This document shows, piece by piece, positions 12,176-55,226 of a DNA stretch of 64,000 nt (the first letter of the stretch is position 1; the number at the start of each line of letters is the position of its first letter). The translations under genes and the position numbers were made by a program. Origin of the DNA: an uncultured Acidimicrobiia bacterium (GTDB lineage: Bacteria > Actinomycetota > Acidimicrobiia > Spongiisociales > ZC4RG35); the NCBI GenBank assembly GCA_963840175.1, contig CAWIXU010000004.1, positions 9,288 through 73,287 of the forward strand, read 5' to 3'. Below the pieces are notes generated by a model. That model had not been told where the DNA came from. It ran no database searches and was given only the letters and a program-made list of their open reading frames with translations.

Positions 12176-14752
12176 TTAGCCCGAGGGTGGCGCAGGGGCG
12201 GCGGCCTGGCCGACGGTGATGTACACCGGGCTCTTGTACGTCATCGCCGTTCCCGGCCCGGGGGTCTGAGCGAGAACGACATCGACCTGGGCGGGGTCGG
12301 TGACCGGCACGTAGGTCGCGTACACGTCGACCCAGGTCCCAGTTGAGTAGATGAATCGGTTGATCGTTCGGTAGGCCTCGCTGATCGGTAGGCCGATCAC
12401 ACTCGGCAACGCGCCGCCAGGGACCTGGCCGTTCGAGACATATATACGAATCGGAAGCCCGGCTTCGACTTCGGCTCCCGAACCGAGCGACTGGAAAACG
12501 ACGGTGCCCGCGGCCTGCAGCGAGGGAATCGGGGTTCACGTTGGGGATGAGTTTGGCCTCGGTCGCCAACGACACTGCCTCGGCTTCGGTCTTGCCGATG
12601 AGATAGGGAACGATGGTGGTCGGGGGCTTGAGGAACGGCTGGAGCTCCTCTTCGGTCAGGCGTGGAAAGTCGAGTGCTTCGACATCGGTCAGCACCATCC
12701 GCATGAACTCGGCCCAGATCGGAGCCGGGACCGAACCACCGAAGACCCGTTCGTAATACTCACCGTGGATGCGAACGTTGCGCAGGGGAACCTGATCTCG
12801 CTCGTACCCCACCCAGACCGCAGTCGTGTACTGCGGAACGAAACCGACGTACCAGGCGTCGCGATAGTCCTGGTGGGTGCCGGTCTTTCCACCCTGGGGC
12901 CGACCGATGGCGGCTCGCTCGGCCGTTCCTTCCGCGGTCGGCACTTCGAGCAGCGGGATTCGCGCTGCCTCGGCGATCGGCGCGGCGATCACCTGCTGCT
13001 GCTCGACCTGGTGCTGGTAGAGCACCTGGCCGTCCTCGTCGAGGATGCGGTCGATCAGATAGGGCTCGGCGTAGAGGCCGTTGGTGGCGAAGGACGAATA
13101 GGCGGAAGCCATCTCCAAGGTCGAAACTGCACCGGTCCCCAGCACGATCGAAGGCACCGGCTGGCAGCGGTGAGGTGATCCCCATTCGGTGCGCGGTCTC
13201 CACTACCTTCTCCGGCCCTACCTGCAAGGAGAGCTGGGCGTAGATCACATTGATCGATCGAGAGGTGGCTTCCTGGAGGGTGATGCGGCCGGCGCTGGCC
13301 CCGGCATTCGACACGGTCCACTTGTTGGGATCGGGCCCATCCGAGCAGATCGTCGGGCAGGTCAGGATGCGAGGGCTCGACCCGTCATATGTGTTGCCGA
13401 GCGTGATGCCGTTCTCGAGCGCCGCGACCAGACCAAACGGCTTGAACGCCGAACCGGGGTTACGTCGACCCTGGACGGCGAGGTCGAACTGGCTCTGTTC
13501 GAAGGGGAGCCCCGAAGCCATCACCTCGACCGCCCCGGTCTGGTTGTTGACCATCGTCAAAGCTCCAGTTGGTGAGCAAGAGTTGGCCTCGGCGTACGAG
13601 GTCAGGTTCTCGATCGGCTCGCTGGGAAAGATTCTCGTGCAGAGTTGCAGGTTCTCTTCGTAGGAATAGAAGGGGAGCCACTCGAGCAGCATCGCATTCG
13701 CCGCTTGCTGCAAATTGAGATCGATGGTCGTTTCGATGGTCAGGCCCCCGCCACCGACGCAGTTGACATCGTCGGATGGGCAACCGAAGACCGAGATGGC
13801 GCGCTCCTCCAGGGTCTGGCCGAGAAAATCGAACTCGTGACGCGAGAGGTCGGACAGCTGCCGCATCACCTCGGTGCGCACGTGTTCCGCCTCGCCGCGG
13901 AACTCGATGTGCTCGAGCACCCCAAGGGGTCTTGACTTGGCGATCTCCGCCTGAGATTCAGTGGTCCAGTCCTGTTCGAGCATGAGGTCGATGACGTCGT
14001 TGCGCCGATCGAGAACTACCTCTGGATTGTCGCCGAGGGTCGTAGAGCGAAGGGTTGCGGATGAGCACCGCGAGGGTGGCGGCCTGATCCAGGGTCAGCT
14101 CGGACATCTCGCGGTGGAAGAACTCACGGGCCGCGGTCTTGACCCCGTAGGCGCCGGCACCGAAGTAGACCGAGTTCATGTAGAACTCGAGGATCTTGTC
14201 CTTCGAGTGGCGACGCTCGAGCTCGGCGGCGATAAACGCCTCTTTGATCTTCCGCTCGATCGTGACCTCGTCGCCGACGAAGACGTTTTTCACGACCTGC
14301 TGGGTGATGGTCGAACCGCCGCGGGTGTTGCCGCTGCGGAAGTTGTCGAGGGCAGCCGAGGCGATGGCCGGGAACGAGACGCCCTGATGGTCGTAGAAGC
14401 CTTTGTCCTCCGCCGCCAGGATCGCGTGTTGAAGGAGCAACGGCACCTCGTCGATCGGGGCCGGCTCGGAGTTGCGCCCGTCGTGGAGCTCGCCGATGAT
14501 TTCTCCGCTTGCCCATATCCGCGACACCCGTGACAGGTCGGGGAGGGTCAGAGTCAACGTCTCGACTTCAGGGACGTACTCGGCTCTTACCTTGTCGATG
14601 GCGGCATAGGCGGAGTTGGCGCCGAGGAAAGTGAAGAGGCCAACCCAGGTGCTGCCCAGGAGCGCGATCGACAGCAGTCCCGCCAGAGCCGGGAACCAGC
14701 GGCCACGACGCTCGCGCGCTTCCAGTTGGTGGATGAGGGATCGATTGGCCAT
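12176..14752 (-). CDS. ponA: Class A penicillin-binding protein (transglycosylase + transpeptidase + C-terminal PASTA); frame disrupted.
   Basis: N-terminal transmembrane segment; EDKGFYDHQGV and GGSTITQQVVKN (GT51); SAFKPF (SxxK) and KTGT in the transpeptidase part; PASTA-like C-terminus (12176..12409). Confidence 0.8.
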
Positions 14753-14826
14753 AAATCAACCGGAGCCAAAGTCGAATGGATAGTCCCCGGTAGCATCAAA
14801 GGTTACCTCTCGACGTCAGGTATTCC

Positions 14827-16377
14827 TTGCGCACTCCCAGCGGAATCGAAATCGAGGTTGTCTACGACCAACCCGCCGATCCCGACAAAATCGGCAGTCC
14901 GGGTGAGTATCCGTTCACCCGCGGCCCTCATCCCACGATGTATCGCGGACGGCTCTGGACGATGCGTCAGTACGCCGGCTACGGCACCGCCGACGCCACC
15001 AATCGCCGGTTTCGTGAGCTCCTCGCCGCCGGGCAGACCGGCCTATCGACTGCCTTCGACCTGCCGACGCAGATGGGACTCGACAGCGACCACCCGTTGG
15101 CCGAGGGAGAGGTCGGCAAGGTCGGAGTGGCGATCGACACCCTCGACGACATGCGCCGTCTCTTTCGGGAGATCCCTCTCTCCGAGGTGTCCACCTCGAT
15201 GACGATCAACGCCACGGCTCCGATCCTGCTCCTGCTCTATCAGCTGGTGGCGGAGGAGCAAGGCGTCGATGGCAAGGAAATCCGGGGCACCGTGCAGAAC
15301 GACATCCTCAAGGAGTACGTCGCCCGCGGCACCTACATCTACCCGCCGGGGCCGTCGATGCGGATCGTCACCGACGTCTTCTCGTACGCGGCCAAGGAGC
15401 TCCCGGCCTTCAACCCGATTTCGATCTCCGGCTATCACATCCGCGAAGCCGGCTCCACCGCCGCCCAGGAACTCGCGTTCACGATCGCCCATGGCCTCGC
15501 CTACGTGGATGCCGCCCTGAAAGCCGGCCTCGACATCGACGACTTTGCTCCCCGGCTCTCATTCTTCTGGAACAGCCACAACCTCTTCTTCGAGGAGGTA
15601 GCCAAGTTCCGTGCAGCCCGCCGATTGTGGGCCGACCTGATGCGGAATCGCTTCGGAGCCAAAGACGAGCGGTCGTGGGCGATGCGGTTCCACACCCAGA
15701 CCGCCGGTTCGACTCTGACCGCGCAGCAGACCGGAAACAACGTGGTGCGCACGACCGTCCAGGCCATGGCCGCCATCCTCGGAGGGACGCAATCGCTGCA
15801 CACCAACTCTTTCGACGAGGCCGTTGGACTGCCGACCGACGAATCGGCCCGTCTCGCCTTGCGGACCCAGCAGGTACTCGCCCACGAATCCGGCCTCGCG
15901 GATGACAGTCGATCCGCTGGCCGGCTCCTACTTCGTCGAGGAGCTCACCAACCAGCTCGAAGCCTCGGCCCGCTCACTGCTCGACGCAGATCGAAAGGAT
16001 GGGGGGCGCGGTGGCGGCAATCGAGAGCGGGGTGGACGCAACGTCAGATCGAAGAGGCGGCCTACGAAGAGGCCCGTCGCCAGGAGTCAGGCGAATCGAT
16101 CGTGCTCGGGGTGAACCGATATGTAGTCGGCGATGAGGCTGAGATTCCGGCGTTGAGAATCGACCCTGAGCTGGAGCGCGAGCAAAAGGCGCGCCTCGGC
16201 CAATGGAAGGCAGAGCGCTCGGCAACTGAAGTCGAATCCGCCCTCGACGCCGTCACCATCGCAGCCGGAGACGGGACCAATTTGCTTTATCCCATGAAGG
16301 AAGCGCTTGTCGCCGGTGCAACCTTGGGCGAGTGTTCCGAGGCGATGCGGGCCGTGTTCGGGAGCCACCGACCGTGA
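14827..16377 (+). CDS. Methylmalonyl-CoA mutase-family catalytic (TIM-barrel) subunit without a fused B12-binding domain; one frame disruption near 15900.
   Basis: YPFTRGPHPTMYRGRLWTMRQYAGYGTA, TAFDLPTQMG, HTNSFDEAVGLPT, and a C-terminus ending VFGSHRP. This is the typical MCM/ICM large-subunit N-domain. Confidence 0.75.
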   Translation: MRTPSGIEIEVVYDQPADPDKIGSPGEYPFTRGPHPTMYRGRLWTMRQYAGYGTADATNRRFRELLAAGQTGLSTAFDLPTQMGLDSDHPLAEGEVGKVGVAIDTLDDMRRLFREIPLSEVSTSMTINATAPILLLLYQLVAEEQGVDGKEIRGTVQNDILKEYVARGTYIYPPGPSMRIVTDVFSYAAKELPAFNPISISGYHIREAGSTAAQELAFTIAHGLAYVDAALKAGLDIDDFAPRLSFFWNSHNLFFEEVAKFRAARRLWADLMRNRFGAKDERSWAMRFHTQTAGSTLTAQQTGNNVVRTTVQAMAAILGGTQSLHTNSFDEAVGLPTDESARLALRTQQVLAHESGLADDSRSAGRLLLRRGAHQPARSLGPLTARRRSKGWGARWRQSRAGWTQRQIEEAAYEEARRQESGESIVLGVNRYVVGDEAEIPALRIDPELEREQKARLGQWKAERSATEVESALDAVTIAAGDGTNLLYPMKEALVAGATLGECSEAMRAVFGSHRP

Positions 16378-28340: not shown

Positions 28341-28559
28341 TGCCGGTCAGCGGGTGAGATCGTGATGATCATCAAGCTTGGCGATCTCGAGGACCCGTGG
28401 GCCAACTTGGTGGAGGCGGCGACGTCATCCATTCGGGTGTTCGCCGTGTGGATCCGCGGCCGTTTGTCGGTGTTCATCCTCGCTGTCGCTTTCGTCGATG
28501 ACGAGGTCGGTGAGGAGTCCCGAGTAGGACGGAGATCGACGCCGGCAGTATCCGCACCG

Positions 28560-29290
28560 TGACCCATCGACACCAAGCACTCGGTGGGCCGGTCCTTTGA
28601 GCGCGTGCCTCCGATCAGGGGCTCACGCCGATCACCTGCTCATGGCGGCAATCGTGTCGGCCACACCGGGCACGGCCAGGATCGGCCAGATCGATAGGAC
28701 CGGGTTCGAGGGGCCGATGACGACTACGTCGCTCTGCCGGCCAAGGCCTCCATGACCCCGGGCGCCGGCCGGCAGAAACCCGCTCCGCGGAAGCGCACGT
28801 CGCTCACTTCGTCGGCGTGGCGACGGAAGTACGAAATACTCCTGGAAGGAGATCCAGCCTTCACCGGCGAATCCGGACTTCGGTCCGCAGCGGGTCGTCG
28901 GTCACGGGCAGGATGGTGGCCGCGATCCCAAAGGCCGAGGCCAGCGCGGTCGTCACCCAGGTCAGCGACCACCCCGCAAGAAGACGATCCGTGCGAAACA
29001 GGTTGGTGGCAAGGTCGCTGTCTCCGATCCGGAATGTCGTGTCGATCGGCAGAGCGATCGAGGGCCTTCATCGCCGCGAAGGGATCATCGGCCAGGCCCC
29101 AACCGTGCGGCCCCTCGCGCCCCGCCATGGTGTAGATGATCGTGTCGATGTCGGGCGAGACCGCCAAGCCGTAGATGCGGTCGTCGTCGCCGACGTTGGC
29201 GATCACGGTCAATTCGTGGTCGGGCAGAGCCGCAAATCCACGGGCGAGCTTCGCCCCGCCCACTCCTCCTGAAAGCATTGTCACCCGCAC
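28560..29290 (-). CDS. cofD: 2-phospho-L-lactate transferase (CofD/FbiA); frame disrupted.
   Basis: MLSGGVGGAKLARG...VIANVGDDDRIYGLAVSPDIDTIIYTMAG...GWGLADDPF. Confidence 0.65.
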
Positions 29291-29440
29291 AGCGTGCCTC
29301 CCGACCTCGCTGAGAAGCTTGGCAGTCTCGAGAGAGATTGCAGTCGAAGTTAGGCTGCTCCACAATGATCCGGTCCATGAGCAGTCCGCCGCTTTCGTCG
29401 GCCGCTCCTTCCTCTGGCACATCGCAGGCTGTCGCCCGCG

Positions 29441-31600
29441 GTGGCCGTCGCGATCCTGGCCGCTGACGGCATCGATCCCCAGGGAACCCTGCAGGCCCTT
29501 CGCTCGCAAGTTTATGCGCCAACCCAGACTCTGGTCGTGGGCGGTGCCCACTGGTCGGAAAGGGTCGTGCGAGACAGCTCAGACGTGCTCGCGGCACTGG
29601 CACCTGACGTCTCCTTCGTGTGGTGGGTGCACGGCGATACGCGTCCGCGGCCGGACGCTCTGGGCGGGTTGGTCCGCGAGCTCGACCGCACGGAGGCCGC
29701 TGTCGCGGGGTCGAAGATTCTCATCGACGGCGGCAGCGATCGCCTGATTAGTCGGTCGGTGGGGCAACTGACGTCTACGGCGACGTCTACACCGGGCTCG
29801 ATCCCGACGAGCTCGACCTCGAGCAGTACGACGTGGTCCGTGAGGTCTCCTACGTCTCGGCTGTCTCGTTGTTGGTGCGACGCGATCTGTCTGCGCGGCC
29901 TCGGTGGATTCGACCCTGCCCTCGCTCCGCAAGCGTCGAGCATCGACTTTTGTCAGCGGGTGCGTCTCGCAGGAGGAAGAGTCGTCGTGGTTCCGTCCTC
30001 TGAGGTCTTCCACCAGTCTCCTTGCGCGGCCGAGGCTCCCGGGATGGAAGGAGCAAGGCGGTCGCAACAAGGCGATGCTGGTTGCCTATTCGCCGCTGAC
30101 CCTCGCCTGGGTGGTTCCGATCGGGCGCGCTTGTCGGCTTGCTCGATGGGCTGTCGCAACTCGTTCTCGGCAGGTTCCGACCATCTGCTGGCGACGATCG
30201 CCTCGTGGTTTTGGACCCTCGGCCAGGTGCCGTCGGTCATCGCGGCCCGGGCGCGCATGCGCCGGATCAGGGCGGTGGGAGATGAGGAGCTCTTTCGATT
30301 TCAGGTCAGCGGTTCGTCACGTCTGCGGCGCACTTTCTCCGAACTCGGTGATCGCTTCAACACGGCGATTGACGAGGAGGAGAGCGGGTCCTTGGCCGAA
30401 CGAGCTACGAGTGCTTGGCGGCGACCCATCGGCGGGTCTCTCGGCATTGTCTCCGGCCTTGGCGTCCTGGTTGCGTACTCGTTCGATCTGGTTCAGCGGT
30501 CCGCCTGAGGTGGGCTTCGCGCTGCCACCGTCGGGTTTGAGTGGGTTGGTCGCCTCCTACGGCGGCGGACCCAATCCGGCGGGTTTCGGGTCCGATTTGG
30601 TGGTCCCGCCGGTCGTCGGCCTCGGTTCGATCTGCCTATCCTCTTGCTCGGCCGCCGACCGAATCTGGCCTCCGCCCTTTTGCTTGCTGGCCGCGATCGC
30701 CCTCGCCCTCCTGGGCATGGCGCGACTGGCCCGACGGATGGGGGCAGGGTCGCTCGCGGGCGTTCGTCGCCGGCTGGGTCTACGTGGCCGGGGCGACGAC
30801 GGCCGCGGTCGATGCGACCGCCAACTGGCCCGCGCTGATGGCTGTCGGACCCTTGCCCTGGGCGATCGAGGCGATCGTTGCTCCTCCTGTCCAGGGTCGT
30901 CGACGGGTCGGCCGGTTGGCCGCGGCCGGGTTCGCCGCGGGCTTTGTGGCGATCGCTTTTCCGCCGCTTCTCTGGTCGTGGTCGCGCGAGCGGTTTGCTT
31001 TGGGCCGTCGTCGCCCGCCGTTTCGGGGCCGCTGGCCTCGGTCTCGCGGCGACTGCTCTCGGCTGCTCTCTGATCCTCCCCTATGTGTTGGGGGCCGATC
31101 TCAACGACGTGCTCTTTGCCGGCAAGCTCCGCCCCGATATCGCCAACGAGTGGCTCTGGCTGGCGGGGATCGGGCTCGGCTTCGCGGTCGCCGCCCTCTC
31201 TTCGCCGCGGACCCGGCTGCCTCGATCTGGTGGGCGGGAATCATGGCCGCGGCGGGTTATCTCGTTTCGCAGAGTCCCGACGTTGCCCCCGGGGTGGTGG
31301 TCGTGGCGTTGATGGCTGCGCGATTGGGGCCGGCGTGCTTGCGGCCAGTCTCATCGAAGTCGAGGCCGCGACCGAAGCTGCTCGGCGGTCTCGCGGCCGC
31401 GCTTCTCGCTATTGCCAGCCGTCCTCACCATCGCCCAGGGACGCTTTGGACTTCCCGGCCGATCGTTGGACCGACCGGCTCGACTTCGTGACCACGTTGA
31501 GCGCCGACGAGGCCCAGGCCGCGCCCTGCTCATCGGGCCCCGTGGATCTTTGCCTGGCCGTGCTCGGTCTCTGTTCGGGTTCGACTATCGCACGATCGAC
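29441..31600 (+). CDS. Family 2 glycosyltransferase fused to a large C-terminal polytopic membrane domain; frame disrupted.
   Basis: WWVHGDTRPRPDALGGLV and DFCQRVRLAGGRVVVVPSSEVFH (GT2), followed by about 1.4 kb of hydrophobic segments in shifting frames. Confidence 0.45.
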
Positions 31601-31699
31601 GGGGGCCAGACAACACTGACCCAGGCGTATCTGTCGAGTCCCGGCCCCCTCGATGACGAGCTTGCTGGGTGATCAACGATCATCTACTGGCCGGAGTCG

Positions 31700-33300
31700 A
31701 TCTCCGACCGGGTGCCGCGCCTGGCCCGGCTCGGCATCGAGTGGCTTGTGCTCGTCCCCGGCTCCGAGTTCCCGACCGAGATCCTCAATCGGCAGATCGA
31801 TCTCGTGGCCCGACCGGTCGACACCGATCTCGCGGTTTATCAGAACCTCTCCTACCGGCCGGCGGACCTCGCTCCGGCGTGGGACGGGGTCGGAGCTGGC
31901 GCGCACGCGCCGGCTGGGGTCGGGGGCCTTGCTCGTCGTGCTCGTCGCGGTCGCCTACTGGGGACGCAACCGGGGCCGGCAAGTTCCGATCGTGGAGCCG
32001 GTCCCGAGCCAGTGGATCGGGCCGGTGAGCGTCGGATGAGCGAGCGCGTAGCCCGCTGGGGCATCGTGTTGGTCGTCGTTCGCCGCACTGCTTTTCGGCT
32101 TCTTGCTTCCCGGCCGGCCCGGCGCCGGTCGTCGATCCAGCTGACGATCCCCGGTGACCCGCCCCTATGTGACCTGTGCCGCGGCTCTGGCCGGGTCGGG
32201 ATTCGAATCGACGGTGGGTGTGGTGACCGACTCATCCGTCAGCGGGACGCTCAGCGGGGTGGGGGTCGACAGCCCGGGCGACGACTTCGAACTGAGGGCG
32301 ACGAAAGCTTTCGCTTCGAGGTTGGGAGCGTGGCCGAGCTCGGCGTCACCCCGATCCTGGTTGAACGATTCACCGGTGGCGACCTGGGCGCGGGCGTTCT
32401 AGGGCGAGCAGGTGCGCAGGCGTCGACCGCCGGGTGCCAGCCGGCCAGTTCCGCTCCGGTCGCTTTGCTGGGCATGGCCACAAACGAGGGCGAGCAATCG
32501 ACGGTCGTGCTCGCCAATCCCTTCGCGGTCGAGGCCAGCGGCCGGTTGGTGGGGTCGTCGGAGTTTGGACTGGACATGGTCACCGAGCTCGAGTCCGTGC
32601 GGGTCCCGGCGCATTCGACGCTCACCTTGCCGCTCGGCCAGCTGATGGCCGGGCGTCAGCAGCTCGGCTTCACGCTCTACACCGACGGCGGAGCGATCGT
32701 GGCTGGCATGACCCGCTCGGGCGCAGACATCGCGACCTCGGAGGCGATCGCCGGCGCCCAGCAGTGGTTCGTTCCGCTTCCCGCCTTCGGTGTCCACGGA
32801 CAACTGATCGTTCGCAACCTCGCTTCGGTCGAGGCGACCTATCGCATCGACGCATTGAATCACGAAGGCGTGATCGAGGGCGTTGACAATGGCGCCCTTC
32901 CCCCCGACACCGAGTTCTGGCTTCAACTTCGAGGACCTTGGGGACAAGCGGCGGCTATCTCGTCACTGCCGACGAGCCGGTCGCGGTCGCGCTCGCTTAC
33001 GCGGGCGAGAACACCCGCATCGTTTCGACTGCATCTCCGACTGCCGACCGTCGCCTGGTTGGTACCCGTGTCGAGCAACGCCCCCGATTCCGAGACCGCG
33101 GTCTGGATCCTCAATCCCGAGGAGGCTGCGGTGACGGCGGAGGTGGCCGTCTTCGGCGGTGCCACCACCGAGTTCGAGGTTTCGACCGGGAACGACCTTT
33201 GGCCAGATCGTCCGCTTCAATGGCCGCGGCGGAATGATCACCGCCACCGGCGAGGTTGCGGTCTTCCACGGAGTCCTGAGCGACGGCGGCGCCGCGTCGA
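31700..33300 (+). CDS. Large exported, beta-rich protein of unknown function.
   Basis: Long protein-like ORF 31712..33514, e.g. STVVLANPFAVEASGRLVGSSEFGLDMVTELESVRVPAHSTLTLPLGQLMAG..., AVWILNPEEAAVTAEVAVFGGATTEFEVSTGND. No family recognised. Confidence 0.35.
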
Positions 33301-33315
33301 TGACTCTGGCTCATC

Positions 33316-33640
33316 CGCTCGAATGAGCGAGTTCACCCTTCGGCTGCTGGTCCTGGTGGCGCTCGCCGCGCTGGTTGCGGTGGCGGTGTTCTGGCAACGC
33401 CGGATGAAACGAGCGTCGCCCGTACTCCGGTTTTGCGTCCCGATCTCGGTGCCGGGATCCACTTCTTCGCCTCCGCTACCTGCCGACCGTGTCTCGACGC
33501 CCGCAAGGTGTTGACTCAGGCGTACGGCGAGCGGTTCAGTCGAGATCTCCTACGAAGACGATCCGACCCGTTTCGGCGAGCTCGGAATCTCGTCGGTCCC
33601 GACGGTCATGGTCCTTGACGGCGACGGCAACGGCCTCCTC
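33316..33640 (+). CDS. Membrane-anchored thioredoxin-like protein (CxxC); frame disrupted.
   Basis: Transmembrane segment MSEFTLRLLVLVALAALVAVAVFW, then GIHFFASATCRPCLDARKVL and ISSVPTVMVLDGDGNGL (thioredoxin-fold signature). Confidence 0.4.
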
Positions 33641-33731
33641 TGGGAGGGCGTTCCCCGCGCCCTCCGATCTCCCCCGCTGACCGTACGGTCGCTGGTGGAA
33701 AGGCCACAACGAATCCTCCAAGCGTTCTACC

Positions 33732-33959
33732 GTGCTCACGGTGTTCCCCAGCTGTCTCCGCTGTCCGTCACCGGCCTCGGCCGTGATGATGTACTCGTAT
33801 CCCGACCAGCACATGTGGGTCGAGGACCTCGCTGTCACCGACGTTCCTTCCTACGCCCTGTGCAGCGACCATTCCGCCCGTCTCAGCCCGCCGCGCGGTT
33901 GGACCTTGACCGATCGCCGGACCGTCGCCCGGCTCTTCGCCCCGCTCGAAGTGGCCTAG
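33732..33959 (+). CDS. DUF3499 family small zinc-ribbon protein (position equivalent to the one beside pmmA in mycobacteria).
   Basis: CLRCPSPASAVMMYSYPDQHMWVEDL...SYALCSDHSARLSPPRGWTLTDRR matches the DUF3499 pattern C.R.GC...A..TL.Y.Y......L......YDLC..H..RL..P.GW. Confidence 0.6.
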   Translation: MLTVFPSCLRCPSPASAVMMYSYPDQHMWVEDLAVTDVPSYALCSDHSARLSPPRGWTLTDRRTVARLFAPLEVA

Positions 33960-33965
33960 CCGGCC

Positions 33966-34238
33966 TTGGCGCTCGACCGCGACCTGCTTGACGCGGTACG
34001 CGACCTCGATGCACACGATCTGCGCCGGTTGCTGATCCTCACCCAGGCCCAGCTCGAGACGCGACGGGGTCTTCAACTCGGCCAAACGGCCCAAGATCAG
34101 AATGCGGAGCCAAATGGTCAAATGCGGCAAGGCCAGTTGCGCCGCCTGCCCCCATGGCCCCTATTGGTACGCCGTTTGGTGGGAAGACGGCGTCCGCCGA
34201 ACCCGTTACGTCGGGCGCCTGCTCCAAGACGAATAGAA
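33966..34238 (+). CDS. Small protein with a C-terminal KCGKASCAACPHGPYWYAVWWEDGVRRTRYVGR zinc-binding motif; one frame disruption.
   Basis: This CxxC...HGPYWY...R.RYLG motif is a recurring small actinobacterial domain of unknown function. Confidence 0.4.
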
Positions 34239-34322
34239 CGGCCGCCCAAGCGCACCAATCCAGGCCGGTCGCGGCAGCGAAAACCAGGTAGAAATCCGTC
34301 GTCCGATAGAATCCCCGCCTTC

Positions 34323-34535
34323 ATGGACTGCCCCCAATGTGGCGTCGTCGACGTCATCGAGATCAAGCATCGCCTGCCCGACGGCAGCGAGGTCCAGTTC
34401 TTCTCATGCCACAAGTGCGAGGAGAAGTGGTGGGACCGCTCCGGCGACCAGATCAATCTGACCCAGGTGCTCGAGCTGGTTCGCAAGGTCCCGGTCCTGA
34501 CGCACCTGATGCCGGGGAATCTGCGATGCAGCTAG
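34323..34535 (+). CDS. Small four-Cys zinc-ribbon protein.
   Basis: MDCPQCGVVDVIEIKHRLPDGSEVQFFSCHKCEEKWWDRSGDQ. Confidence 0.4.
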   Translation: MDCPQCGVVDVIEIKHRLPDGSEVQFFSCHKCEEKWWDRSGDQINLTQVLELVRKVPVLTHLMPGNLRCS

Positions 34536-34590: not shown

Positions 34591-36770
34591 TTGCGCTCTT
34601 GGCGATCCTCGCGGTGCTCAACCCCCGGCTCCTCCTCGACGGCCACCACGCCGTCGGGAGGCGACATGGCTGCCCATGTGGCAGTCCCCGCCTATCTCCG
34701 CGATGTTCTGCTCCCGCAGGGCCGAATCCTCGGCTGGTCGCAGGATTGGTTCGCCGGCTATCCGGTCTTCTACTTCTACTTCCCGCTGCCTTCGCTCGTC
34801 ATCGTCCTGCTCGACGTCGTCCTGCCCTACGGCGTCGCCTTCAAAGTCGCCACGATCTCGGGCCTCCTCGCCACCCCGCCAGCCGACTTACTACCTGGCT
34901 CGCAGCCTGCGATTCGGAAGAGCCGGTGTCGACGGTGGCCGCGGCGGGCGGTGCCGCCTTCATCTTCATGGAGAGCTTCACGATCTACGGAGCCAATGTT
35001 CTCTCGACCATGGCGGGCGAGTTCTCGTTCTCGTGGTCGTTGGCCCTCTCGTCTCTTGTATCTCGCTTTTCTGATCCGCTCGATCCGCGACGACCCGAGG
35101 TACGTCCCCTGGCCGGACTCTTTCTGGCCGGCGCGGTCCTCTGCCACATCATCACGATCATCGCTTTCATGGCGGCGAGCCTCGACGGTGCTCCTCTGGA
35201 AAGGGGCCTGCGGCAGGCGCTCAAGGTGTGGGCCATCGGATTCGCCATCAGCCGGGTTCTGGGTGGTCCCGCTGCTTGCCCGTCTCGGGTTCAGCTCCGA
35301 CATGGCGTGGATACCGCTTCGCAGCTGGGATCAGCTGTTCCCGCTCGAGATCTGGCTCCTGCTGCCCGCGCGATCGGCGGAGCCATCTGGGCACTGCGGC
35401 GCACCAACCGCAGGCTTGCCGTTGATGGCGCTGACCCTGCTGCCCGATCATCTACTACCCGCTGCCAATCGTCCTCCCGGACCTGCTCCCCGGGATCTTC
35501 AACGCCCGCTGGAAGCTGTGGAACGGCCGCCTGCTCCCGTTCTGGTATTTCGGGGTCACGTTCTTTGCCGCGATCGGCATCGGCGGCGTTTGCGATGTGG
35601 CTGACGAAGCGCTTCCCCGACCGGGTCTCCGGATTGCTGCCGCGGATCCTGTTCCTCGCAGCCGGGACGGTGGCGGTGATCCTGCTCGCCCGGGAAGAGA
35701 ATGTTCCCAATCCGGTGGTTTGGGCGTGTGGCGATCTGATGCTCGGGGCCTTAGTTGCCTCGATGCTCTGGATGCGAGCCGGTCGATACCCGGTCGTTCC
35801 TGGCCCTGAGCGCAGCCGGGATCCTGGCCTTTGGCGCGCTGGCCGGGATCACGATCATGAACGGATGGGCTCGCTGGAACTACACCGGCTACGAAGGCAA
35901 AGCCAAATGGCCCGAGTACGAGGCGCTGATGACGACAGCGGCCACGACTGGAACCGGGGCGGATTCATTGGGAATACGACGAAGACGATGAACGACTTCG
36001 GCTCGCCGATGGCCCTGATGCTGTTTCCGTACTGGACTCAGGAGGCTTTCGGGTCGATGGAAGGGCTGTTCTTCGAATCGTCGCTCTCGACTCCATTCCA
36101 CTTCCTCAACCAGGCGGAGATGAGCAAGGACCCATCGAGCCCCGATTCCGGGCCTCGACTATCACCGGTTCGACTTCGAACGCGGGCATCCCCCATCTGC
36201 AGATCTTCGGGGTCGACTACTACGTGACCTTCACCCCCGAAGCCACAGGATCTGGCCGACAGCTGGCCGGAACTGACCGAGATCGCCAGCTCACCGGACC
36301 GTTCACCTTCTACGAAGTGGCCGACTCCGCCCTGGTCGAGGCTGCGACTTCCAACCCGCCGTTTACGAAGGCCCCCACAACAGCCTGCCCGGCCCGACTG
36401 GGAGGAGTCGTCGGGATCGGTCCCGGACGAACAGGCGCAACCTTCGAGGAGGTCTCACTCGAGTGGTACGGATGGATGGATCTCCTCGATCGATGGATCA
36501 CCACCGACGGCCCCGCGGATTGGCCGCGGATCACGATCGTCGACCAACTCGGAGCCGGTCTGCTCCGCTGCGGATAACCGAAGCGAAGATCACCGACGTC
36601 GTGATGACCGACGATCGGATCTCGTTCCGCACCGACGCGATCGGGGTGCCCCACCTGGTGAAGGTCTCCTACTTTCCCAACTGGCAGGCCACGGGCGCCG
36701 AAGGGCCCTTCCACGCCGGGCCTTCGCTCATGATCGTGGTTCCGACCAGTCGACGGTGACCCTGCAGTTT
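34591..36770 (+). CDS. Large polytopic membrane protein with a C-terminal soluble domain (GT-C-like envelope glycosyltransferase candidate); frame disrupted.
   Basis: About ten or more transmembrane segments across ORFs 34591..35604 and 34599..36227, then a soluble tail (FTFYEVADSALVEAATSNPPF, VKVSYFPNWQATGAEGPFHAGPSLMIVVP). Confidence 0.45.
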
Positions 36771-36799
36771 GGCAACACGGCCGTCGAGAACCTCGGCTG

Positions 36800-37640
36800 G
36801 ATTCTGACCATCGCCGGACTGGCCGCCGGCCGGGCTCTGCTGCTGGTCAGGAGCCGGGCGAGCCGCAAGCCGCTCGGACGCGGGCTACGCCGTAGCCGAC
36901 GTCCGGCGGTATCCGCCCGCTGAGCGTCCACCACCAGCAGTCGGAGCGTGTCGCGGGCCATCTGCCAGAGCATGCCGCCCCGCACCGGCGCCTGCGGAAG
37001 CGCCCGGTCCCAACTCCACCGGCAGTCTCTTTGATTGAAACCCGCCCGCTGGGCCCGAACCAGCATCTCGAGGTCGTAGGCATATCCATCGATCCGCATC
37101 TGGGGAAGACCTGATCGAGGATCGATCGCCGGAAGATCTTGAGCCCGGTCTGGGTCTCGGGCACGGGCAGCCGAAACAGACCCACCGTCGCCAGCGAAAA
37201 CAGCCGGCTCAGCACTCGCCGGATGAACGGGTAGCGGCCCGTCGCCCATCGAGTCGCGCTTGGCACCGACCAGCACGTCGGCTCGCCCATGTCTTCGAGC
37301 AAGGCCGGCAGCTGCTCGGGCGGAAGGTCGAGATCGGCGTCGAGAAAGACGATCAGGTTCGCCGCGTGGCCCGGGCGCCCGTGAACAGCGCCTGGCCTTT
37401 GCCCCGGTTGACCTCGTGACGGAGGACCCGAACTCCCTCGGCATGTCGCGGTGGCCCGCAGCGCTTCGAGCAGCGTGTTGTCGCGTGCTGCCGTCGTCGA
37501 CCACGACGATCTCCACGGGCCCCATCGCCGACAGGACGGACGCGCACCCGCTCGATGTTGGCGGCGATCACCTGCGAACCCAGGTTGGCAGGCGGCAGGA
37601 CGACGGCGACATCGGACGAGAGGACTGTAGCCATCGAACG
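36800..37640 (-). CDS. Family 2 glycosyltransferase of the polyprenol-phosphate sugar synthase type; frame disrupted.
   Basis: VEIVVVDDGSTD, IVFLDADLDLPPEQLPALLEDM, RRVLSRLFSLATVGLFRLPVPETQTGLKIFRRSILDQV, YAYDLEMLVRAQRAGFN. Confidence 0.6.
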
Positions 37641-37728: not shown

Positions 37729-39070
37729 ATGAGCGGAGTTTTCAAGGCCTACGACATCCGAGGGCGAACCGACATCGGTGAGCTCACCCCGGAGCTGGCC
37801 ACGGCGGTCGGAGCCGCTTTTGCCGACCTCACCGGCGCCGAACCAGATCGCGGTCGGGCGGGATTGTCGAGCGTCGTCACCGGCGATGTCGGAGGCACTG
37901 ATCGATGGGATCACCGGCCAGGGGAGCCTCGGTCCTCGCTCTCGGCGAGGTCGCGACCGACTTCGTCTACTACGTCTCCGGCAGCCGGTCGGTCCCCGGG
38001 GTGATGATCACGGCGTCGCACAACCCGGCCGAATACAACGGGATCAAGCTTTGCCGGGAAGGAGCGGCCCCGGTGGGCGAGGACACCGGCCTCAAGGAGA
38101 TCGAGAGGATGGTGGCCGAACCGTCCATGGCCGAGCGACCGTGCGGGGGCATCGGTCGAGACCCTCGATGCCCGCGAGGGCTACGTCAACCATCTGCTCG
38201 CGATCGTCGACGAAGCGGCAATGTCGCGCTGCGAGGTGGCGGTCGACGGCGGGCAACGGCATGGCCGGGGCGGTGGTCGAGGCAGTCTTCGAGCGCATTC
38301 CTCCCACCATCATCGGGCTCTATCTCGAACCCGATGGGACCTTTCCCAATCATCCCGCCGATCCGCTGCAGCCCGAGAACCTGGTCGATGTCATCGCGCT
38401 GGTCAAGCGCGGAGAATGCCGATCTCGGGGTTGCCTTCGACGGCGACGCCGATCGGGCGGTCTTCATCGACGATCAGGGCGAGCCGCTCTCGGGAAGCAC
38501 CACCACGGCCCTGATCGCCCGGTGGTTCCTGGCCCGCCAGCCCGGGGCCACGATCGTCCACAACCTCATCACCTCACGGGCCGTGCCGGAGATCGTCGAG
38601 CTCGCTCGGCGGCAAACCGGTCCGAACCCGGGTCGGTCACTCCTTCATCAAGCAGGTGATGGCCGAGACCGGAGCCGTCTTCGGTGGCGAGCACTCCGGT
38701 CACTACTACTTCGCCGACAACTTCCGGGCCGACTCCGGGATGCTGGCGATGCTGGTGCTCCTCCAGGTCATCTCCGAGTCGGGGAGGAAGCTGTCGGAGA
38801 TCCGGAGCGAAGTCGAGCCGTACTGCCGCCTCGGGCGAGATCAACATTCAGCGTGGCCGATCAGAAGGCTGCCATGGATCGGGTCGAGGAGGAGTTCGCG
38901 GACGCCGAGCTCGACGATCTCGACGGGCTGACGGTCTCGTGGCCCGACCGCTGGTTCAATCTGCGGGCTTCGAACACCGAACCGTTGCTGCGCCTCAACG
39001 TCGAAGGCCCGGACCGACACAGTCGGTCGAAGAGCTGAGCGCGAAGGTCCAAGCCGTGATCGGAGGTGAG
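37729..39070 (+). CDS. pmmA: Phosphomannomutase/phosphoglucomutase; frame disrupted.
   Basis: MSGVFKAYDIRGRTD, MITASHNPAEYNGIKL, and downstream PMM/PGM domain pieces. Confidence 0.75.
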
Positions 39071-39074
39071 CCGA

Positions 39075-39293
39075 TGCCGCTCATTGACCCCGTGCTTGCT
39101 GCGATCATGGTCTGCCCGTTCGATCACGGCGACCTCTTCGAGGACGAGGCCACGTCCCGGCTCGTCTGCGCGGTCTGCGGCCGTGCCTACCCGGTTGACG
39201 ACGGGATACCGATCATGCTCATCGAGGAGGCCGAGCTCCCGGGGGACGGCCCAGCAGAACGGGACGGTCCCGATGCCGGCTGAGGAAATGGAG
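39075..39293 (+). CDS. Trm112-family small protein.
   Basis: MPLIDPVLAAIMVCPFDHGDLFEDEATSRLVCAVCGRAYPVDDGIPIMLIEEAE. Confidence 0.55.
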
Positions 39294-45528: not shown

Positions 45529-48124
45529 ATGTCCATCTTTTCCAAGCTGCTCAAGGCCGGTGAAGGCAAGACCCTGCGCGAATTCGAGCGTCTCGTCGTC
45601 GAGGTCAATGCCCTCGAACCGACCATCTCAGCGCTGGATGACGCTCAACTAGCCAACCAGACCGTCGAGTTCCGGCGCCGGCTCGACGCCGGGGAGCCGC
45701 TCGATGACCTGGCCGTCGAGGCCTTCGCCACGGTCCGGGAGGCAGCGCAACGAGTCATCGGGGAGCGTCACTTCGACGTCCAGGTGATCGGCGCTTTGGC
45801 ACTCCATCGGGGGATGGTGGCCGAGATGAAGACCGGCGAGGGCAAAACCCTGGTTTCGTCGATGCCCGCCTATCTCAACGCCCTTCCTGGCACCGGCGTG
45901 CACATCGTCACCGTCAACGACTACCTCGCCTCCCGCGACGCCGACTGGATGGGCGCCATCCATCGTTTCCTCGGGCTCAACGTCGGGCTCATCCAAACCG
46001 GTATGGAACCCGGAAAGCGGCAATCCGGCCTACGCCGCCGACATCACCTACGGAACCAACAACGAGTTCGGGTTCGACTATCTGCGTGACAACATGGCGA
46101 TGCGGGCGAGCGACCGTGTCCAGCGCGGCCACGTTTATGCGATCGTCGATGAGGTCGACTCGATCCTGATCGACGAAGCCCGCACCCCGTTGATCATTAG
46201 CGGCCGGCTGTCGGATGCGGCCAAGTGGTATCGAGACTTCGCTCGAATTGCGAACCGGTTACGACGCGATGAGCACTACGAAGTCGATGAAGCCAAGCGA
46301 CAGGTATTGACCACCGAGGAAGGCGTCGGATTCGTCGAAGAGATACTCGGAGTCGAAAACCTCTATGACCACGCCGCGGTCGACTTCGTCCACCATCTCG
46401 AGTCATCGCTGCGAGCCAAGGAGCTCTACCAGCGGGACGTGGAATATCTCGTTGACCAGGGCGAAGTCAAGATCGTTGACGAATTCACCGGGCGCGTACT
46501 CGAAGGTCGTCGTTATTCAGAAGGGCTTCACCAGGCCATCGAGGCGAAGGAAGGGGTGAAGATCAAAGAAGAGAATCAGACCCTCGCCACGATCACTCTC
46601 CAGAACTACTTCCGGCTCTACCAGAAGCTTGCCGGGATGACCGGCACCGCCGAAACCGAAGCGGCCGAGCTGGCGCAGATTTATGGACTCGAAGTGCTGG
46701 TCATCCCGCCGAACCGGACCGTGGCGCGAGCCGACCAACCCGACCTGGTCTTTAAGTCAGAGGATGCCAAGTTCCAAGCAGTCGTCGATGACATCGTCGC
46801 GCGCCATGAGGCGCAACAGCCCATCCTGCTGGGCACCGTCTCGATCGAGAAGTCCGAGCGTCTCTCGAAGATGTTGCAAAAGCGGGGCATCGAGCATGAA
46901 GTGCTCAACGCCAAGAATCATGCCCGGGAGGCTGAAATCATCGCGCAGGCGGGGCGTCCCGGCGCGGTGACCGTGGCCACCAACATGGCCGGGCGGGGAG
47001 TCGACATCAGGCTGGGTGGGAATCCCGAAGGTCTGGCGCGCGTCGAGCTCAAGCGCCAGCAGGTGCCGGAAGAGGAGTTCGAGAAAAAGCTCGCCGAAAC
47101 CACTGCCCGCTACGCCGCCGAGATCGCTCCGATCAAGGAAAAGGTGATCGAAAGCGGTGGGCTTTACGTCGTGGGCACCGAGCGTCACGAATCCCGCCGG
47201 ATCGACAATCAGCTGCGTGGTCGTTCGGGCCGCCAGGGTGATCCGGGCGAGTCCCGGTTCTATTTGTCGCTGGGAGACGACCTGATGCGTCGTTTCTCTG
47301 GGGATCGAGTTTCGTCGTTGATGGATCGGATGAAGATTCCCGACGACGTACCCATCGAGGCCGGCATGGTGACCAAGGCCATCGAACGAGCGCAGAAAAC
47401 GGTGGAAGCACAGAACTTTGAGCTTCGCAAGAACGTCCTCAAATTCGATGAGGTGATGAACAAGCAAAGAGAAGTCATCTACGACTGGCGCGTGGATTTG
47501 CTCGAGGCGTCGGGTGAGGATCTGGTCACAGAATGGATCGAGGTCGTAGTCGCCGATACCGTCGAGGCGGTTTTTCCACCCGAGCTCGCACCGTCGGAAT
47601 GGGATTGGGAATTGCTCAACAAAGAGCTAGTTCAGATTTATCCGTCAACGCTCAAAGAGCCGGGACCGGAAGGATCCTCGCTGGAGGATGTCATCGACGC
47701 GGCCGTCGAAGAGGCCAACGCGGCCTATGCAGCGAAGAGCAAGGAATTGGGGCTCGAGAACATGCGCCAGGTCGAGCGCCAGGTGATTCTGTCGGTGATC
47801 GACAACAAGTGGCGCGAGCACCTATCCGAAATGGACTACCTGCGCGCTGGAATCGGCCTGCGCGCCATGGGCCAACGCGATCCGCTGGTCGAATATCAGC
47901 GCGAGGGCTACTCGATGTTCAGCGAACTGGTCGAATCGGTGAAGCGTGACACCGTTCGCTATTTGTTCCACGTCCAATTGGCGGAGCCCGCCGCCCCGGC
48001 TGCCCCCAAAGTCGTCAACGATGATCAGTCAAAGTCAATTCGAAGCAGCGGCGCCGTGGGCCGCAACGATCCCTGCCCATGTGGCAGTGGCAAGAAATAC
48101 AAACGCTGCCACGGTGCGGCGTAA
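45529..48124 (+). CDS. secA: Preprotein translocase ATPase SecA; one frame disruption near 46030.
   Basis: [42 protein letters not shown], and C-terminal zinc finger [14 protein letters not shown]. Confidence 0.9.
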
Positions 48125-53620: not shown

Positions 53621-53673
53621 CCGACGCAGCTTCTCTCCCCGACCAACTTCGGCTCGGCCGTTCTTCGTAATCG

Positions 53674-54025
53674 TGGAGGCGGCGGGAATCGGACCCGCGT
53701 CCCATGAGTCGTCAGCGCCGGCATCTCCGAGCGCAGCCGTCGGCGAGCTTGTCGGCAAGAAGGACCCCAACGGCGGGCTTCCCACTCGCTTATCCGGAGT
53801 TGATCTTTGCCCTCCGGTCCCGGATCCCGGAGGACGCATCCTGCATTGCGACGCCCGATTCCGGCGAGGCAGGCGCCCACCGGGCGGACGGGCTGCGTTA
53901 TTTAGGCAGCCAGTGCGAAGTTGTCTTCGGCACTTGTGTTTGTTTCCGGCTCTTTAACGAGGTTCCGGAGACCTCGGCTCGCTTCCGACGCATCAACACT
54001 CATGGTCGAAACCATTTCGCCCCCA
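53674..54025 (-). ncRNA. ssrA: tmRNA (ssrA). Predicted tag peptide AEDNFALAA.
   Basis: Minus-strand 5' end GGGGGCGAAATGGTTTCGACCATGAG. Tag reading frame GCC GAA GAC AAC TTC GCA CTG GCT GCC TAA. The 3' end is tRNA-like: GGACGCGGGTCCGATTCCCGCCGCCTCCA. Confidence 0.85.
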
Positions 54026-54086
54026 TGGGCTGATCGCAATTCTACGGGTATTCAGAGAATCCGTGTTCGCCTATCTTCTGCGGAAA

Positions 54087-55226
54087 TGACGATCTACGAC
54101 AACGAGGATCTCGAGGCGATTCGCCAGCAAACCCGGCGCTTCGTCGAGGAGAAAGTCATTCCGGAGGCGGACAAATGGGAGGAGGCCGGTCGGGTCCCCC
54201 GTGAGATCCTCGACGAGATGGCCAGGATCGGCTTCTTCGGTCTGCGGGTCCCGGAGGAGTACGGGGGAGTCGGTTTCGGACCCCTCGCCACCGTCGCCTA
54301 TGCCGAGGAGCTCGGGCGTTCGACCTACGGCGGCTTCGCCATCACCGCCCTGGTCCACACCGAGCTCGCCATGCCGTACCTCTTCAACTTCGGCTCGGAA
54401 GAGCAGAAGCAGCGCTGGCTCCCGGCCATGGTCAACGGCGAGATCATCACCGCCATCGCGGTCACCGAGCCCGACGCCGGTTCGGATGTCGCCAACATTC
54501 GCACGAAGGCGGTGCGCGACGGTGACGGCTGGCGGATCAACGGCTCCAAACTCTTCATCACCAACGGGGGAATCGCCGACCTGGTCTTCGTCGCGGTCAA
54601 GACCAATCCCGAAGCGAAAGGGTCGAGGGGCATATCGATTCTCGCCGTCCCAAAGGACGCTGAGGGATTCAGTGTGAGCCGGGCGCTAACGAAGATGGGA
54701 TGGCACTCCTCGGACACAGCTGAGCTCTCGTTCAACGATTGCTGGGTTCCCGCCGACCACCTCGTCGGCGACGAGAACCGCGGCTTCTACTACATCATGA
54801 CCAACTTCCAGAACGAGCGGCTCGCCATCGCCGCGCAGGCAATCGGCGAGGCGAGCGAGAGCGATCGAGCTCACGCTCGAATACACAAAACAGCGCAAAG
54901 CGTTCGGCAAACCGCTTTTCGACAAGCAGGCCATTCGTCAGCGCCTGGCTATGGCCTCCACCGAGGTCGAGGCTGCCCGACTACTGGTCTATCACGCGGC
55001 ATGGTTGATGGAGCAGGGCGAGGATGCCGTCAAGGAAGTGTCGATGGTGAAGGCGCTAGTCGGCGAGCTCGTCAACGACGTGCTCTACGAATGCGTCCAG
55101 TTCCACGGGGGCATGGGATACATCGCTGAGACCGCGGTGGAACGCCTCTATCGCGACGTTCGCATCCACTCGATCGGCGGTGGTGCCACCGAGGTGATGC
55201 TCGACGAGGTCGCCAAGCGCCTCTAG
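54087..55226 (+). CDS. Acyl-CoA dehydrogenase; one frame disruption near 54860.
   Basis: AVTEPDAGSDVANIRTKA, WRINGSKLFITNG, C-terminus QFHGGMGYIAETAVERLYRDVRIHSIGGGATEVM. Confidence 0.8.

Follow-up and report, generated by a model that had tools for sequence, protein, structure and literature searches.

The window analysed here, a stretch of 64,000 nucleotides (nt) of contig CAWIXU010000004.1 from an uncultured bacterium of the Acidimicrobiia, carries a string of seven co-directional genes between the F420-biosynthesis gene for CofD and a phosphomannomutase (PMM) gene. In order, they encode a fusion of a family 2 glycosyltransferase (GT2) to a polytopic membrane domain, a DUF5719 protein, a thioredoxin-like protein, a DUF3499 zinc ribbon, a DUF6788-like protein, a four-Cys zinc ribbon and a large polytopic protein that we call memL. 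The string is conserved, lies in a block of LCP, F420, PMM, PMI and SAHH genes, and probably builds or decorates a glycan of the cell envelope. Members of the Acidimicrobiia, essentially all uncultured, abound in soil and water; in the fusion and its DUF5719 neighbour there is now a concrete candidate for an envelope-glycan pathway that is conserved but has not been studied.

The genes are real and not chance open reading frames, having intact orthologues in hundreds of genomes. A sequence-only reading of the window had listed the first six of these products, and frameshift-aware alignment showed all six to be encoded on the + strand in the order that it gave. The limits quoted for these genes were obtained with a frameshift-aware protein-to-DNA aligner written for this analysis, using intact homologues as queries.

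Conservation of the gene order

GTDB species representatives were scanned with an alignment of the fusion, which gave 300 relatives. Nearly all of the best 80 are labelled Acidimicrobiia or Actinomycetota, with a few labelled ‘uncultured bacterium’, ‘uncultured Actinomycetes’ or Acidobacteriota, and protein identity to the query among the relatives ranges from 37 to 89%. The order of the genes, whose conservation in relatives the sequence-only reading had left to be established, was collinear in all 68 loci that lie on long enough contigs, each from an Acidimicrobiia species representative, and all seven genes are present in 63 of them.

The junctions are as regular as the order. The fusion and the DUF5719 gene overlap by 4 nt in 56 of 63 loci, and the DUF5719 and thioredoxin-like genes by 8 or 4 nt in 40 of 45. 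In the window itself the stop codon of the fusion (TGA, 32037–32039) overlaps the ATG of the DUF5719 gene, and the start of the thioredoxin-like gene overlaps the DUF5719 stop (ATGA). A median gap of about 32 nt (56 loci) then precedes the DUF3499 gene, which is followed within 10 nt by the DUF6788-like gene in 63 of 71 loci (mostly at −1 to +4 nt, mode −1); a second gap, with a median of about 47 nt (66 loci), precedes the zinc-ribbon gene, which overlaps memL by 4 nt in 36 of 60 loci. The genes thus fall into three sub-modules, namely GT2 fusion–DUF5719–thioredoxin-like, DUF3499–DUF6788 and zinc ribbon–memL, and the pattern of junctions fits a single operon in which each sub-module would be translationally coupled. 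The proposal that the six genes may form one envelope-associated module agrees with the 4- and 8-nt overlaps that link the first three in most genomes, but needs amending: there appear to be three coupled sub-modules rather than one, and the set extends past 34535 to memL and to a GT2 gene on the minus strand.

The boundaries of the string are the CofD gene (28374–29290, −; 11 frameshifts), which is divergent from the fusion, and the phosphomannomutase/phosphoglucomutase gene (37729–39087, +; 10 frameshifts), the pmmA of the sequence-only reading. An LCP ligase and a UDP-glucose dehydrogenase are encoded just upstream of the F420 genes, and Trm112, PGI/PMI and SAHH downstream of PMM. The same flanks (F420 genes, PMM, Trm112, PGI/PMI, SAHH and LCP), together with DUF3499, are shared with the whiB2–DUF1025–DUF3499–pmmA–manA interval of Mycobacteriales and Streptomyces. 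The two intervals differ in what lies between the flanks. The Acidimicrobiia have the thioredoxin-like, DUF6788, zinc-ribbon, memL and small GT2 genes, and the called genes of the four loci looked at for this purpose (L001–L004) include neither whiB nor Zincin_1; mycobacteria, on the other hand, are without the fusion and DUF5719, the M. leprae whiB gene (ML0760) directly adjoining the DUF1025 gene (ML0761) (PMC4255298). In Streptomyces coelicolor, whiB and DUF1025 are apart, with two genes between SCO3031 and SCO3034 (PMC4255298); the literature searched gave nothing functional on these two genes, SCO3032 and SCO3033.

Distant lineages carry the pair as well. One such locus (L086, 6425–13021) reads fbiB-type ligase, CofD, fbiC, ECF sigma factor, whiB, a GT2 protein of 1014 amino acids (aa), DUF5719, Zincin_1 on the minus strand, DUF3499 and PMM, and its GT2 protein aligns with the profile of our fusion over 873 columns (probability 100%, E 2e-41). 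A second (L089, 1–5917) reads glycosyltransferase, DUF5719, Zincin_1 on the minus strand, DUF3499 and DUF6788, so that the adjacency of DUF3499 and DUF6788 persists outside the close relatives. DUF5719 lies directly 3′ of a large GT2–membrane fusion in both of these loci and in L088, which is an association rather than a curated definition of the family. From these distant lineages and from the gene spacing in M. leprae and Streptomyces, the pair appears to go back far in the history of the phylum and to have been lost in mycobacteria, loss being likelier than addition. SCO3033 and SCO3032 are presumably its counterparts in Streptomyces. The sequence-only reading had contrasted the interval with its mycobacterial counterpart and regarded the fusion, the exported protein and the thioredoxin-like protein as additions; the contrast fits the literature, but the pair is not peculiar to this organism. 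It has a fixed place in an actinobacterial synteny block of cell-wall and sugar-phosphate genes and recurs in a distant whiB-containing lineage.

A block of old synteny could also hold genes that do not work together, with the fusion and DUF5719 as one unit, DUF3499 and DUF6788 belonging with PMM and PMI, and the zinc ribbon with memL. The two gaps that divide the coupled groups would be expected on such a reading, as would the minus-strand Zincin_1 gene between DUF5719 and DUF3499 in both distant loci; moreover, L077 has no thioredoxin-like gene, and in four further loci another gene splits it off from DUF5719 (see below). In addition, the DUF3499 relative of C. glutamicum, Cg0853, heads a pmmA–manA operon that has neither the fusion nor DUF5719 (PMC7775120). 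Against this stand the seven co-directional genes with their short gaps, collinear in every locus across so wide a range of protein identity, and the adjacency of DUF3499 and DUF6788 that is kept outside close relatives. We consider separate units somewhat unlikely and prefer the reading of a single string concerned with an envelope glycan.

The GT2 fusion and its DUF5719 neighbour

The fusion extends from 29377 to 32039 (+; 884 aa, 20 frameshifts); that it exists had been recognized from the sequence, although its limits had been put at 29441–31600. In a frameshift-aware alignment the window protein is 84% identical in amino acid sequence to its homologue P0001 and has no in-frame stop; the AlphaFold2 (AF2) model was made on P0001. 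This model and that of the DUF5719 protein, the two structure predictions that the sequence-only reading had proposed, were both obtained with confidence (pLDDT, the predicted local distance difference test, of 88.9 and 87.8, respectively). From the N-terminus to the C-terminus the fusion consists of a GT-A domain, a transmembrane hairpin, a conserved cytoplasmic segment (VGDEELFRFQ), a core of about ten helices, an alpha/beta ectodomain (residues 681–830) and a last transmembrane helix, with some 12–13 transmembrane helices predicted in all.

The N-terminal domain matches the GT-A enzymes GalNAc-T2, GlfT2 (4fix) and RmlT at a Foldseek probability of 1.00, and the DXD-type metal site of this fold is present, with H84 and D86 (of an HGD motif), R166, D168 and D188 invariant. 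The motifs HGD and VRRD and a terminal His point to the WbbL/GlfT type. The domain resembles the WbbL/GlfT2/MftF-type enzymes in its GT-A fold, in having HGD in place of NPD/DXD, in VRRD and in the C-terminal His, but it scores far under the cut-offs of those families (the best NCBIfam match being MftF at E 1e-9, with 37.5 bits against a cut-off of 280) and is fused here to about 650 aa of membrane domain and ectodomain. Pfam family PF13632 scored 25.9 bits on P0001, below its cut-off of 27, and many homologues of the fusion have precomputed matches to PF13641 or PF13632.

The membrane half has its best structural matches in AftD, a mycobacterial GT-C arabinofuranosyltransferase, and in ArnT, and its polytopic core is similar in fold to GT-C enzymes: AftD (6w98) was the best Foldseek match of the fusion (E 2.7e-7, 571 columns), and ArnT (5ezm) aligned over 600 columns with a TM-score of 0.47 normalised to the target. 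With AftD the fusion shares the succession of polytopic core, extracytoplasmic soluble domain and C-terminal transmembrane helix, and a place in an actinobacterial envelope-glycan locus, in the case of the fusion a probable one. It differs from them in having no detectable sequence similarity, in the added N-terminal GT2 domain and in the want of a conserved acid in the first loop, which is considered below.

The DUF5719 protein (32036–33326, +; 428 aa, 9 frameshifts) had been read as an exported protein of about 530 aa at 31700–33300, a span that had absorbed the C-terminal ectodomain and last transmembrane helix of the fusion. Nor is it without a recognisable family, as had been thought: after frame correction the protein reaches 31.8 bits with PF18986 (gathering cut-off 26.2), its orthologues 43 bits and distant members 104–135 bits. 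Word-based searches gave few homologues, and an exhaustive profile search gave 1547 DUF5719 clusters. The AF2 model (predicted TM-score 0.85) is of a signal-anchor helix followed by an all-beta ectodomain built as a stack of beta-sandwiches, and the charges flanking the helix indicate an N-in/C-out orientation; the protein is thus predicted to be an outward-facing, membrane-anchored beta-sandwich stack. Of its cysteines, C133 is invariant and C46 nearly so. AftD has its carbohydrate-binding modules built in, along with its soluble domain and C-terminal transmembrane helices. Here, by contrast, the beta-sandwich modules are on the separate, translationally coupled DUF5719 protein.

The anatomy and the conservation of the pair are observed, and from them we infer the following chemistry. 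With a nucleotide sugar as donor, the GT2 domain would glycosylate a polyprenyl-linked acceptor on the cytoplasmic side of the membrane; the membrane domain and ectodomain would handle the lipid-linked product at the outer face, either transferring it or serving as a scaffold. DUF5719 may be a glycan-binding partner, comparable to the built-in carbohydrate-binding modules of AftD, and PMM and PMI would supply the hexose phosphates.

Several findings weigh against this proposal. The acidic residue expected of a GT-C enzyme in the first extracytoplasmic loop (residues 365–400) is not conserved, the conserved residues there being only G, P, W and N, and across 88 sequences D/E conservation stays below 80% in every column from residue 332 to residue 740. 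The membrane domain may therefore not be a catalytic GT-C, and we term it GT-C-like for this reason. Profiles of the fusion and of memL found no relative in the PDB, the structural matches of DUF5719 are weak, domain-level and generic (Ig-, pilin- or CBM-like), and co-transcription of the string is deduced from gene spacing only. The literature searched held no mention of DUF5719 or of DUF6788.

The missing acid would also suit a different kind of enzyme, a processive synthase–exporter like the hyaluronan and cellulose synthases, which would thread its glycan through the membrane domain with DUF5719 as a guide in the wall, the likeness to GT-C proteins being structural only. PF13632 and PF13641, which many homologues of the fusion match, include synthases; hyaluronan synthase was among the Foldseek matches, with about 470–495 aligned columns; and the GT2 domain is followed by a conserved cytoplasmic helix as well as by the VGDEELFRFQ segment. 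That helix, however, reads W-R/K-E-Q-x-G-R, and the QxxRW motif of the processive synthases is not present. Moreover, the hyaluronan synthase superpositions are poor, with a root-mean-square deviation of about 16 Å, AftD and ArnT are better matches to the membrane domain, and the GT2 motifs resemble those of the WbbL/GlfT/MftF type. A processive synthase is, in our judgement, distinctly unlikely, and lipid-linked sugar addition followed by handling at the outer face is the reading that we retain for the fusion.

No description of a GT2/GT-C-like fusion of this kind was found in the literature searched. As the families are catalogued and the genes generically annotated in public metagenome-assembled genomes (MAGs), we do not regard the system as one of a new kind but as an uncharacterised variant, in which a GT-A/GT-C-like fusion and a split-off beta-sandwich partner are fixed in a phylum-wide synteny block. 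A bolder view, which we regard as doubtful, is that the two proteins form a widespread and unrecognised two-sided glycosyltransferase machine of the Actinomycetota, lost in Mycobacteriales, that couples cytoplasmic sugar addition to handling outside the cell through a GT-C-derived domain devoid of its loop-1 acid. If true, the genes beside whiB and PMM would amount to a new pathway for an envelope polymer.

The small proteins, memL and the convergent GT2

The thioredoxin-like protein (33323–33680, +; about 118 aa, 3 frameshifts) is present, as described from the sequence, although its limits had been given as 33316–33640. It has an N-terminal transmembrane helix and a CRPC motif. It also has a cis-Pro motif (VPT), and the residues of CxxC and VP (C52, C55, V90 and P91) are invariant in 36–45 orthologues. 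Single sequences give only weak Pfam matches, but the family profile identifies a thioredoxin fold, its PDB matches including thioredoxin 2l6c (E 4.5e-9) and many more. The net charge of the C-terminal flank of the helix (+3.6) exceeds that of the N-terminal flank (+0.6), as it does in 41 of 45 sequences, and by the positive-inside rule the thioredoxin domain is predicted to lie in the cytoplasm and not in the envelope. An outward-facing disulfide oxidoreductase acting on the DUF5719 cysteines was considered and down-weighted on the same grounds.

The thioredoxin-like gene alone of the set looks specific to the Acidimicrobiia. In four loci of one subclade (L002, at 14072–16321 on the − strand, L006, L008 and L026) a gene for a GH15/trehalase-like protein is inserted on the opposite strand between the DUF5719 and DUF3499 genes, in or next to the place of the thioredoxin-like gene, which it separates from DUF5719.

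DUF3499 is encoded where the sequence-only reading had placed it, by an intact open reading frame at 33732–33959 (+) with the zinc-ribbon pattern CxxC…CxxH. It scores 39.2 bits against PF12005 (cut-off 25), covering positions 8–61 of the 119-position model, and the gene is present in all 68 loci. At about 57–72 aa the Acidimicrobiia proteins are a minimal form of the family, which in the distant lineages (L086, L089) reaches 235–281 aa. The C. glutamicum member of the family, Cg0853, was a hit in a transposon screen for envelope defects (PMC7775120).

The next gene (33966–34236, +) encodes a protein of 89 aa with an N-terminal helix and a zinc knuckle, C-x4-C-x2-C-P-H-G-P-Y-W-Y, that is invariant in 32 sequences. 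The CxxC–HGPYWY protein reported earlier is confirmed, with its 3′ end moved from 34238 to 34236 and one frameshift, at about 34059, and it resembles DUF6788: the window protein itself scores 18.7 bits against PF20586, below the cut-off of 27.2, and its orthologues in L001–L004, L088 and L089 have precomputed matches at E ≤ 1e-5. A profile search of the PDB gave no relative for this family.

The four-Cys zinc ribbon (CPxC…CHxC; 34323–34535, +) is likewise as first described and has no frameshift. Its conserved core is of 58 aa, and its profile found only weak, non-significant TFIIS-type matches in the PDB (E ≥ 0.02). The open reading frame is about 12 codons longer here than in the orthologues (34496–34535), perhaps through a further indel close to its 3′ end, or else as a genuine extension. 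For the three small zinc proteins and the thioredoxin-fold protein, the latter predicted to be cytoplasmic, we suggest accessory or regulatory roles.

Beyond the interval that had been described, the co-directional string continues with memL (34599–36909, +; 24 frameshifts), which encodes a polytopic membrane protein of 766 aa and is found in all 68 loci. It has no Pfam or NCBIfam family, and hhalign gave no relationship to the membrane domain of the fusion. Convergent with it is the gene for a small GT2 of the PpgS/ArnC/GtrB type (36850–37634, −; about 259 aa, 12 frameshifts), whose orthologue in L001 scores 88.6 bits against PF00535; against the PpgS model the small GT2 scores 73.6 bits, under the equivalog cut-off of 370.

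Taken together, the zinc ribbon, memL and the PpgS-like GT2 look like a Gtr-type system of external glycosylation. As in the Gtr, CsbB–GtcA–YfhO and PpgS–Rv3779 systems, a PpgS/ArnC-like small GT2 is paired with a large polytopic protein. The analogy is supported by L088, in which a gene of the GtrA/DPMS-TM family (14574–15044), coding for a putative flippase of lipid-linked sugars, follows memL and overlaps the convergent small GT2 gene, lying between the two. The GtrA gene was seen in L088 only and is not in the cluster of the window, memL matches no GT-C family by sequence, and memL here has a zinc-ribbon gene coupled to it; in these respects the genes differ from the known systems. By analogy, a polyprenyl-phosphate sugar would be formed by the small GT2 and transferred outside the membrane by memL, decorating the product of the pathway.

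Broken reading frames

The open reading frames listed for 28.5–36.3 kb of the window are overlapping pieces spread over all three forward frames, and neither of the two large genes, those of the fusion and DUF5719, is represented by any single one of them; the phase of the third-position G+C content shifts every 100–300 bp across the interval. A GT2 query spliced by hand gave 530 homologues, the top ones being intact proteins of 876–930 aa from Acidimicrobiia MAGs. When the frames were corrected, the large open reading frames did not dissolve into unrelated fragments, the outcome that had been named as fatal to the proposed gene set, but joined into full-length conserved proteins. When X-masked three-frame translations were searched against Pfam, nothing but DUF3499, DUF5719 and weak ribbons came up, and frame correction was needed for the GT2 domain to be found.

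As the reference locus we used L001, a 312-kb ENA contig with one intact homologue of the fusion, which is collinear with 19.7–41.6 kb of the window at 83–86% nucleotide identity. In a tblastn search of L001 proteins against about 20.2–41.5 kb of the window, 14 of 16 genes gave split or overlapping matches in more than one frame; only those for Trm112 and the zinc ribbon, both short, did not. The 5.1-kb interval described in the sequence-only reading contains 33 frameshifts, shared among the fusion, DUF5719, thioredoxin-like and DUF6788 genes in the numbers given above, with none in DUF3499 or the zinc ribbon; nine neighbouring genes have 4 to 24 each and the short Trm112 gene none. Overall, the load is about one indel per 130–150 bp.

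So many frameshifts, which amount to 94 over seven neighbouring genes and are not concentrated in homopolymers, could be those of pseudogenes decaying in a reducing genome. Decay would, however, have left other marks. In the 3661 corrected codons of these seven genes, for which L001 has no frameshift, there is no in-frame stop, compared with about 26 expected under neutral decay, and the differences from L001 bear the stamp of strong purifying selection: codon position 3 accounts for 67% of the substitutions, and there are about two synonymous codon changes for each non-synonymous one (1015 vs 499). Core genes are hit equally, SAHH having six frameshifts at 93% amino acid identity; secA (46094–48124), methylmalonyl-CoA mutase and an acyl-CoA dehydrogenase are truncated elsewhere in the window. 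L001 itself has at least two frame errors, and gene calls are fragmented in L091, which like L001 comes from an assembly with contig_NNN names; both show similar but rarer errors. We rejected decay on the stop-codon and codon-position statistics, and consider it highly improbable.

The absence of in-frame stops, the position-3 bias and the equal involvement of core genes show that the indels are errors of sequencing or assembly and not biology. The apparent pseudogenes of the window are assembly indels, and annotation of this contig from its open reading frames is unreliable. A homopolymer error model was dropped, as the indels show no association with homopolymers.

In L001 a frameshift at 12340–14288 joins the DUF5719 and thioredoxin-like genes into one call of 557 aa and disturbs the C-terminus of DUF3499, from which it follows that database proteins of the clade can be chimeric. 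Other stretches of the window cited as affected are 14827–16377 and 53921–55129, in addition to 19738–41616.

Rfam and tRNA scans of the interval found nothing, the sole match in the window being a tmRNA gene outside it (53671–54024, −; Rfam 157.7 bits), for which ARAGORN gave the tag peptide AEDNFALAA. Far upstream of the string, at 7817–9727 (+), an open reading frame combines a SpoIID domain with S-layer-homology (SLH) repeats, which hints at an SLH-anchored wall protein.

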